Shown piece by piece: positions 51,260 to 51,685 of a stretch of DNA of 64,000 nucleotides. The notes beneath the pieces were generated by a model that worked only from the letters and a program-made list of their open reading frames with translations, had not been told where the DNA came from and did not search any database. Source of the DNA: a virus; IMG/VR virus record IMGVR_UViG_3300025682_000001, positions 1 through 64,000 of that record; one strand, written 5' to 3'. Positions within the stretch are counted from its first letter, which is position 1. Each line of letters starts with the position of its first letter. The position numbers were made by a program, and so were the translations under genes.

Positions 51260-51685
51260 ATGACGAACGTAACGATCGCTCGCGTCCCAGGACAGAGGAA
51301 GGACATGATGGTCGAGGATGGCTGCACCGTTCGCGAGTGCGCCAGGCTCGCAGGCATCTCCTGCTACGAGTCCGACTCCGTCATGATTAACGGGCGTCCA
51401 AGCATCTTGAACGCCGAACTCCGCAACGGTGACATTGTCACCATTTCCGCGAAGGTGAAGGGGAACATGCCTGACTACATCGACGTCACAGTCGCCAGGG
51501 TCCCTGGCGAGAGGAAGGTCATCACCCTCAACGGCGGCAGGACCGTGAGGGATGCGCTCGGCCAGGCCGGTATGTCCGTGGGAGACAAGGACGAGATGCG
51601 CGTCAACAACCGCATCGCCAACCTCTCATATGAACTGAGGGACGGCGACGTCGTTACCCTGACCACCGCGGTCAAGGGCAACTAG
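51260..51685 (+). CDS. Tandem double ubiquitin-like (ThiS/MoaD-type beta-grasp) protein
   Basis: Two homologous modules (aa 1-69 and 70-141), both ending ...LR(N/D)GD(I/V)VT(I/L)..(A/K)VKGN. The ThiS-like pattern is vNG-----l-dGD-v-i---v-GG. Confidence 0.65.
   Translation: MTNVTIARVPGQRKDMMVEDGCTVRECARLAGISCYESDSVMINGRPSILNAELRNGDIVTISAKVKGNMPDYIDVTVARVPGERKVITLNGGRTVRDALGQAGMSVGDKDEMRVNNRIANLSYELRDGDVVTLTTAVKGN

Follow-up and report, generated by a model that had tools for sequence, protein, structure and literature searches.

A candidate polyubiquitin-like precursor encoded in a putative phage-borne cassette for conjugation of ubiquitin-like proteins

We analyzed a 64,000-nucleotide stretch of viral DNA (positions 1 to 64,000 of IMG/VR record IMGVR_UViG_3300025682_000001; this whole stretch is called the window here), focusing on a gene that encodes two ubiquitin-like (Ubl) modules in tandem, hereafter the di-Ubl gene. 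Each module ends in the same Lys-Gly-Asn (K-G-N) tag, and the gene very probably belongs to a phage-borne Ubl conjugation cassette that also encodes a JAB/JAMM metallopeptidase, an E1-like adenylating enzyme, and two E2-like proteins. From the sequence comparisons reported below, we estimate a probability of about 0.55 that both G-N junctions are cut and that two monomers are released from a polyubiquitin-like precursor.

The di-Ubl gene (51260..51685, + strand) begins with an ATG preceded by a Shine-Dalgarno-like GAAGGGA, and its open reading frame (ORF) translates into 141 residues plus a stop codon. An internal repeat divides the product into two beta-grasp domains, module 1 (51260-51466, + strand) and module 2 (51467-51682, + strand). 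Residues 1 to 69 and 70 to 141 align without gaps, with 31 of 67 positions identical (46%) and 70% positives (E = 3e-20), in agreement with a preliminary description of this DNA that had split the product at this point and had noted the ending VKGN on both halves. The translation gives these endings as SAKVKGN for module 1 (G68, N69; DNA 51461-51466) and as TAVKGN followed by the stop codon for module 2 (G140, N141; DNA 51677-51682). Because one residue, the Asn, stands behind the terminal Gly, trimming would be needed before this Gly becomes the C terminus. Both modules match the hidden Markov model (HMM) of the family module over their full length. In Pfam and NCBIfam, the module matches TGS, ThiS, and MoaD best, and module 2 scores above the Pfam gathering cutoffs for TGS (33.6 versus 22.2 bits) and ThiS (25.7 versus 22.5 bits).

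Structure prediction bore out the beta-grasp fold that the preliminary description had assigned to both modules. An AlphaFold2 model of the di-Ubl, for which five homologues served as input, contained two beta-beta-alpha-beta-beta(-beta) units with a mean predicted local distance difference test score (pLDDT) of 85.2; values below 50 occurred only at residues 67 to 70 (K-G-N-M) and 139 to 141 (K-G-N). The predicted template modeling score (pTM) of this model was 0.48, which suggests that the relative orientation of the two Ubl domains is not fixed. Foldseek searches of the PDB returned ISG15 as the top match, with linear di-ubiquitin, tetra-ubiquitin, and Naegleria polyubiquitin also among the best (E about 1e-7, probability 1.0). 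Among viral models, it matched uncharacterized proteins of Caudovirales, pestivirus polyproteins that contain a ubiquitin insert, and polyubiquitins of giant viruses.

An exhaustive HMMER search with a five-sequence profile (E <= 0.001) yielded a Ubl family of at least 464 representatives of clusters formed at 50% identity, and 150 listed representatives were parsed with the module HMM. Among these listed matches, the number of modules per protein was one (39 proteins), two (82), three (25), or four (7). Internal module ends read G[NAG] in 139 of 153 cases and GN in 122 of 153, and terminal module ends read G[NAG] in 135 of 150 and GN in 112 of 150. The number of residues beyond the last projected module end was 0 (65 proteins), 1 (45), 2 (11), 3 (6), or at least 6 (22), such that 127 of 151 last modules had 0 to 3 residues past this point. 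Two very long listed representatives without KGN motifs, P0072 and P0118, were rejected as unrelated repeat proteins. Across 256 modules, the Gly was conserved in 100%, the highest of all positions, the Asn in 88%, and the preceding Lys in 84%; K-G-N thus makes up three of the six best-conserved module positions, despite lying in a disordered tail. When 46 di-module proteins with identities as low as 24% were aligned, Gly140 was the sole invariant column and Gly68 was retained in more than 90%. KVKGNM at the internal junction was invariant in the five close homologues. The Gly at the module ends and the G-N junction, on which the preliminary description had built its proposal, are thus conserved among homologues.

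Modules resembled one another more within proteins than between them (median identities of 64% and 33%, respectively), and the nearest module came from the same protein for 146 of 196 modules. Therefore, the units have been duplicated or homogenized many times, as in polyubiquitin genes. Among 55 adjacent module pairs with less than 50% identity in their cores, 45 retained the internal Gly, which is therefore more than a relic of recent duplication. A minority subfamily carries GG-type ends (KGG-N, KGG-RR, GG-KC, and IRGG-N). Its 293-residue, four-module member P0053 ends each module in IRGG followed by N (or, in the last module, by RG), near the LRGG of ubiquitin. Ends of the KGG-N and IRGG-N type place the Asn behind the likely scissile bond, which argues for cleavage after Gly.

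The 22 long-tailed proteins place one or two KGN-terminated modules ahead of unrelated domains (coiled coils, a Cys-rich domain, and others), and their downstream parts also include degenerate beta-grasp modules and long helical tails. Such fusions include P0113, P0142, P0052, P0138, P0143, P0075, P0049, P0033, and a gene at locus L140 (8001..8609); a Cys-rich/coiled-coil domain downstream of the Ubl modules is common to the first three. Because an unrelated domain follows the KGN, modules in these proteins would be activatable only after proteolysis. In layout, the fusion members are a prokaryotic-virus analogue of ubiquitin fusion proteins.

The candidate processing enzyme is a JAB/JAMM metallopeptidase (49824..50534, + strand; 236 residues from a GTG, with the gene call on a related contig starting at 49956). 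Its JAMM signature consists of Glu41 in SEVGF (49941-49955) and the HxHx7Sx2D motif HTHPFGSVSPSSQD (50157-50198), both on the + strand, and E41, H112, H114, S122, and D125 were invariant in six JAB homologues, down to 26% identity. The protein weakly matched PADLOC JAB models (E = 4.8e-4 to 3.8e-3), and the only PDB matches of a six-sequence JAB profile were the AMSH/Sst2 JAMM deubiquitinases, at nonsignificant E values of 0.4 to 1.6. The preliminary description had called this peptidase adjacent to the di-Ubl gene. The gene is present and its catalytic residues are intact, but it lies two genes upstream, with the E1 gene in between.

This intervening gene (50501..51229, + strand) encodes a ThiF-type E1-like enzyme of 242 residues from the first ATG, or 231 from a start at 50534 (Pfam ThiF, E = 9.2e-16). 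Its motifs, GAGATGS (50612-50632), DxD..HN..NQ (50684-50722), and Cys187 in SPCG (51053-51064), all on the + strand, were invariant in five diverse homologues. We take the loop residue Cys187 to be equivalent to Cys184 of ThiF and Cys187 of MoeB. The enzyme matches PADLOC CBASS E1-E2 models, and the solved structures nearest to it are PaaA and CBASS Cap2. A ThiF-like protein annotated as "thiamine biosynthesis protein" and 36% identical to the window E1 also occurs in cultured Xanthomonas and Erwinia jumbo phages, for example in Xanthomonas phage PhiXhv-12 (locus L131, PV764601.1 143445..144128; further copies H2 to H5). The ThiF genes of these jumbo phages and of uncultured phages were rejected as members of the same system: no Ubl, JAB, or E2-like neighbor was detected beside them.

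The two remaining cassette proteins are, with moderate confidence from profile comparisons, E2-like, and both keep a His and a Cys. E2-like protein B (48429..49724, + strand; 431 residues) comprises an N-terminal region that matches no family in the libraries scanned, a coiled coil at about residues 204 to 258, a UBC-like domain at about residues 265 to 404, and an acidic tail; the putative active-site loop holds H340 and C348 in PHAWDDGRVCLGN (49443-49481, + strand). E2-like protein A (47161..48432, + strand; 423 residues) is a paralogue of the C-terminal domain of protein B, with H358 and C366 in PHVGSNGEPCWGN (48229-48267, + strand), and the family E2-domain HMM matched residues 302 to 433 of its stop-to-stop ORF (E = 2.9e-29). 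The shared domain retains H..G..C.G and L...N..D..G without exception in nine homologues. Searches of Pfam, NCBIfam, PHROGs, and PADLOC returned nothing significant for either protein. Comparison by hhalign of the E2-like domain with four human E2s, whose sequences were entered by hand (a caveat), gave a probability of 77.6% (E = 1.9e-5). The aligned region takes in the HPN-Cys loop, the helix behind it, and the PNxxDP motif; two unrelated control comparisons gave 0.1%. UBE2W and UBE2N were among only five PDB matches of the E2-like profile, at the active-site loop and with E about 1, where PHVWHDGHICH of a relative (L032) stands against PHVYSNGHICL of UBE2W. An AlphaFold2 model of the 431-residue protein B, built from four sequences, had a pLDDT of 41; its order of strands, loop, and helices was compatible with UBC but unreliable.

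Long acidic tails end the E2-like proteins, as in ...DDDAPPMPDEDDEEEEE in the window (49650..49721) and ...EDEDDYIEEEDYDEDDDYDDDTDDEDAPF at locus L135 (2500..2626), and the tail of Cdc34-type E2s resembles them. Many single-module Ubls (P0087, P0132, P0133, and P0095) begin with Lys/Arg-rich leaders, and a charge-based contact between E2-like tails and such leaders is conceivable. On a contig with an identical di-Ubl (L003, 5899..8465), the counterpart of protein A was called as 250 residues with a 570-base uncalled gap and may be a frameshifted or variant copy.

The window cassette thus consists of five consecutive + strand genes in the order E2-like A, E2-like B, JAB, E1, and di-Ubl. The E1 gene and the two E2-like genes had been overlooked in the preliminary description, and with them the operon forms a complete conjugation cassette. 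Directly 3' of the Ubl stop codon, positions 51690..51732 (+ strand) form a GC-rich, nested hairpin followed by a U-run, UUGUUCUUUUU (minimum free energy of -27.8 kcal/mol, z = -3.79, none of 200 shuffles as good). A consensus terminator scan missed this element because its T-run lies behind the outer stem. The hairpin is likely the intrinsic terminator of the operon, which would make the Ubl gene its last gene.

HMMs of the window proteins and of their relatives were run against the contigs fetched for related genes. This context scan identified 11 distinct cassette arrangements in which a Ubl gene accompanied E1, JAB, and one or two E2-like genes. The Ubl gene was always accompanied there by a JAMM peptidase, whose catalytic residues are intact. 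The Ubl gene had one module in L136/L137, L138/L139, L141/L142, and L143, two modules in the window/L003, L001, L032/L085, and L135, three modules in L008, and a module fused to another domain in L140; single-, double-, triple-module, and fusion genes therefore fill the same cassette slot. Gene order was either E2-JAB-E1-Ubl, as in the window, or Ubl-E2-JAB-E1, and tandem E2-like paralogues were also found in L032 and L138. On one 8.6-kb contig (L007), the Ubl gene had no cassette gene within reach.

Together, these results suggest the following scheme, in which we infer the target and all of the chemistry, most of all the internal cleavage. The 141-residue translation product would consist of two beta-grasp units strung together flexibly. 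The JAMM peptidase would cut the K-G-N tags after Gly68 and Gly140, with Asn as the P1' leaving residue. The proposed internal site is K65-V-K-G68-N69-M70 (51452..51469, + strand; Gly68 codon at 51461-51463), and at the C-terminal A-V-K-G140-N141 (51668..51682, + strand) removal of Asn141 would expose Gly140. Unit 1 (residues 1 to 68) and unit 2 (residues 69 to 140) would be released, each with a free C-terminal Gly, which the ThiF-type E1 would adenylate, possibly forming a thioester on loop Cys187. One or both E2-like proteins would then take over the Ubl on their invariant Cys. The large N-terminal regions of these proteins would select the target, a phage or host protein, and one of its lysines would receive the Ubl; JAB may also remove the modification again. 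JAMM peptidases unmask ThiS-like carriers, as QbsD does for QbsE and Mec+ for CysO. SAMPs are unmasked in the same way, as with SAMP1 and HvJAMM1 (PMC4443979), and BilC removes one residue after the reactive Gly97 of BilA, after which BilD and BilB conjugate BilA (PMC10557695). JAB preprocessing of a bacterial Ubl is already established. Extended to the family, the scheme is more tentative: viruses might encode a full cascade, with a minimal E1, E2-like proteins with built-in target recognition, and a JAMM peptidase that cuts a multicopy or fusion precursor after each Lys-Gly, and the units might tag host or virion proteins.

The principal rival reading is possible but clearly less probable than the precursor reading. 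It holds that the protein acts as an intact tandem modifier of the ISG15/FAT10/BilA kind: JAB would trim only Asn141, the whole di-Ubl would be conjugated through Gly140, and the internal KGN would be kept for another use, for example to serve as a hinge or to give E1 or JAB an additional place to dock. Several points weigh against internal cleavage and suit this rival. The two modules of the window's clade share only 35 to 45% identity, and both persist as distinct orthologues throughout the five homologues; to judge from these alignments, diverged and individually kept modules are an ISG15-like pattern rather than that of a homogenized array. The best Foldseek match of the model is ISG15. 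The bacterial multi-beta-grasp Ubls that have been studied well all work uncut: type I Bil Ubls, which are two fused ubiquitin-like domains, act intact, as BilA does (10.1101/2023.09.04.556158), and Ubl2 and Ubl3 of Bil and Bub operons are used intact, as monomers or filaments (PMC11601603). Further points bear on the scheme as a whole. The E1 (231 to 242 residues) lacks a separate catalytic Cys domain; the E2 assignment is based on a profile comparison (77.6%, with E2 sequences entered by hand), and the structure model failed; and the Asn is conserved (88%) beyond what a mere leaving group would need, so that the mature end could be other than Gly. We infer instead that the high conservation of Asn reflects a P1' preference of the JAMM peptidase. 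Self-cleavage by Asn cyclization and a Pup-like use of the terminal Asn were set aside as less probable, given that E1 and JAMM are always present and that GG-type relatives place N behind KGG or RGG.

The wider family, in contrast, speaks against an intact modifier. The tag is equally conserved at internal and terminal ends, diverged pairs included; module number ranges freely from 1 to 4 within one type of cassette; repeats that are nearly identical indicate that the unit was duplicated repeatedly; and Ubl modules are found upstream of unrelated domains. Moreover, the model predicts a disordered linker and neither a fixed interdomain orientation nor an interface. The preliminary description of the product as a polyubiquitin-like precursor is thus partly supported: the fold, the terminal Gly, and the G-N junction did not refute it, and the diverged modules of the window's clade also fit an intact ISG15- or BilA-like di-Ubl.

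A role as a sulfur carrier of the ThiS/MoaD type is very unlikely. A thiocarboxylated Ubl would then supply sulfur for a phage-specific cofactor or nucleic acid modification, and JAB would only unmask its C terminus. The TGS, ThiS, and MoaD matches of the module would agree with such a role, as would a minimal ThiF-like E1 with what is presumably the loop Cys of ThiF and MoeB and the frequent location of the cassette among DNA metabolism genes. However, no cysteine desulfurase, rhodanese, or sulfur-accepting synthase was found in any cassette, one or two E2-like proteins with an invariant His and Cys are always there, the units end in K-G-N and not G-G, and we know of no precedent for tandem arrays and fusions among sulfur carriers. 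Least probable is internal initiation at Met70, which would make the di-Ubl plus free module 2 without proteolysis: the K-V-K-G-N codons of module 1 do form a Shine-Dalgarno-like AAGGTGAAGGGGAAC ahead of the ATG at 51467 (AAGGGG three bases and GGTGA eight bases upstream), and the relative L001 likewise has KGN-ATG, but K-G-N codons are purine rich by themselves, the C terminus of module 1 would stay bound, and most family junctions lack a Met (KGNAGT, KGNSTI, and KGNQIS, for example), so that initiation cannot explain the family.

Every family context examined was a phage-like metagenomic contig or a contig of a metagenome-assembled genome (MAG); three loci lay on MAG-binned contigs, assigned to Flavobacteriaceae, to Thermoanaerobaculia, and, in one case, unclassified. 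The neighbors of the cassettes were of phage type: a PDDEXK nuclease, AAA_24, RuvC, GP88, primase, DnaB, an SNF2 helicase, and Rad52, as well as UDG, NrdD, lysis enzymes or cell wall hydrolases, and a beta-helix/M23 tail-fiber-like protein. A degenerate DNA pattern (two KGN motifs one module apart) gave 120 hits in IMG/VR, but just 3 of these loci proved real, and a related-locus search of IMG/VR with the close di-Ubl alignment returned no locus. Against GenBank phages, tblastn with the di-Ubl and with a four-module relative gave no match, nor did a DNA search with the cassette (45.7 to 53 kb of the window). Within the window, 19 of 20 large ORFs tested (468 to 1,126 residues) had no Pfam or PHROG match. 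Just upstream of the cassette, a 480-residue ORF (45710..47152, + strand) had weak matches to baseplate-hub/VgrG-like proteins (PHROG 184, E = 0.0036; NCBIfam VgrG_rel, E = 0.15); if real, this likeness puts the cassette beside a tail gene and hints at a virion target. Elsewhere, the window carries a TnpB-type element (14078..15358, - strand; 426 residues; OrfB_IS605, E = 6e-26; Cas12f1-like TNB, E = 1.5e-19; HTH_OrfB_IS605, E = 1.1e-16). The contig of the window recurs in three JGI metagenomes (3300010344, 3300009720, and 3300009715).

To our knowledge, head-to-tail multicopy modifier precursors and fusions have so far been treated as a feature of the eukaryotic ubiquitin system. The literature searched, whose coverage was incomplete, did not describe any phage poly-Ubl that carries a KGN motif. 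Within it, the phage-like location and the complete processing and activation tag at every unit end appear to be undescribed, as do the 1 to 4 copies with concerted evolution and fusions, the minimal E1, and the long, often duplicated, acidic-tailed E2-like proteins. If the precursor reading is true, the polyubiquitin gene design exists outside eukaryotes, in a widespread family, and may have an independent or ancestral origin there. Phages would also own full E1/E2/deubiquitinase cascades, beyond being targets of bacterial ones, and these might be the viral counterpart, for offense or for assembly, to the Bil defense of bacteria. Questions raised include the targets of phage ubiquitination, the countering of Bil-like defenses, and the role of the Asn that is conserved behind the scissile Gly. 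The components are small: the substrate has 141 residues, the peptidase about 200, and the E1 about 230.

Comparison with known systems places the cassette outside both Bil, by sequence match, E1 architecture, and viral context, and 6E/Bub, although in outline it would work like them. Bil (BilABCD) likewise combines four components, a Ubl, an E2, a JAB deubiquitinase, and an E1 (E2 here by profile comparison), and two loci, L135 and L136, share the order Ubl-E2-JAB-E1 with bilABCD (PMC10557695). As in the window, type I BilA has two beta-grasp domains, and BilC trims one residue after the reactive Gly. The systems differ in setting: the cassette lies on phage-like contigs with phage-type neighbors (three loci in IMG/VR), whereas Bil lies in bacterial defense islands. 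They also differ in the E1, which here has about 230 to 245 residues and lacks the mobile catalytic Cys domain, with PaaA and Cap2 as the nearest solved structures, and in the E2-like proteins, which here have 250 to 650 residues and long N-terminal regions and are often duplicated. Every module of the Ubl family is tagged; BilA is reported to act intact. PADLOC (PADLOC-DB 2.0.0, in which the presence of Bil models was not checked) returned only CBASS E1-E2 and JAB matches and none for the Ubl or E2-like proteins.

The 6E/Bub systems, with polyUbl/Ubl3, likewise string two or three beta-grasp domains together, and their operons also encode E1, E2-like, and JAB domains (PMC1779556, PMC11601603), and Iyer et al. 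(2006) already described tandem bacterial Ubls in E1/E2/JAB operons as "reminiscent of poly-ubiquitin" (PMC1779556). However, Ubl3 stays intact, dimerizes, and forms Ca2+-dependent filaments (Gong et al., PMC11601603). Those systems also have JAB-E1 or E2-E1 fusions, a DUF6527 protease, and a three-domain Ubl, whereas JAB, E1, and E2-like proteins are separate genes here, and a Pfam search of the window proteins gave no Multiubiq or DUF6527 match. No repeated cleavage-site motif at each domain end was reported for them.

JAMM-processed carriers such as QbsE (with QbsD) and CysO (with Mec+) share with the di-Ubl a ThiS-like fold, a masked Gly, a nearby JAMM peptidase, and a ThiF-type E1, but are single-domain proteins, most of which serve sulfur transfer and lack an E2-like partner. 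The same holds for SAMPs (SAMP1/HvJAMM1, PMC4443979). Lambda-like tail proteins I (Ubl) and K (JAB plus NlpC/P60) also pair a phage Ubl carrying a conserved C-terminal Gly with a phage JAB (PMC1779556), but in a tail gene cluster with no E1, E2, or tandem array, and there the Ubl is fused through a Gly-rich linker to a C-terminal domain. From the fixed di-Ubls ISG15 and FAT10, the window protein differs in that both of its modules carry K-G-N, invariant in close homologues. The first domain of ISG15 is not known to carry a conjugation motif.

Eukaryotic polyubiquitin (UBB/UBC and yeast UBI4) differs from the Ubl family in several respects. The Ubl modules have no detectable sequence relationship to ubiquitin and match ThiS/TGS profiles; their units end in K-G-N rather than R-G-G and are connected by Asn and 0 to 3 linker residues, where ubiquitin units follow one another directly; a JAMM enzyme from the cassette operon is the presumed protease; the genes belong to a prokaryotic virus; and processing is predicted. 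Although the two units of the window's clade have diverged (45%), the family as a whole shows the variable unit number and concerted evolution characteristic of polyubiquitin. The further likenesses are the head-to-tail array of whole modifiers, the activation motif that ends every unit, the 0 to 3 cap residues, the fusions to unrelated proteins, as in ubiquitin-ribosomal fusions, and, for the Ubl family, a dedicated peptidase encoded nearby.

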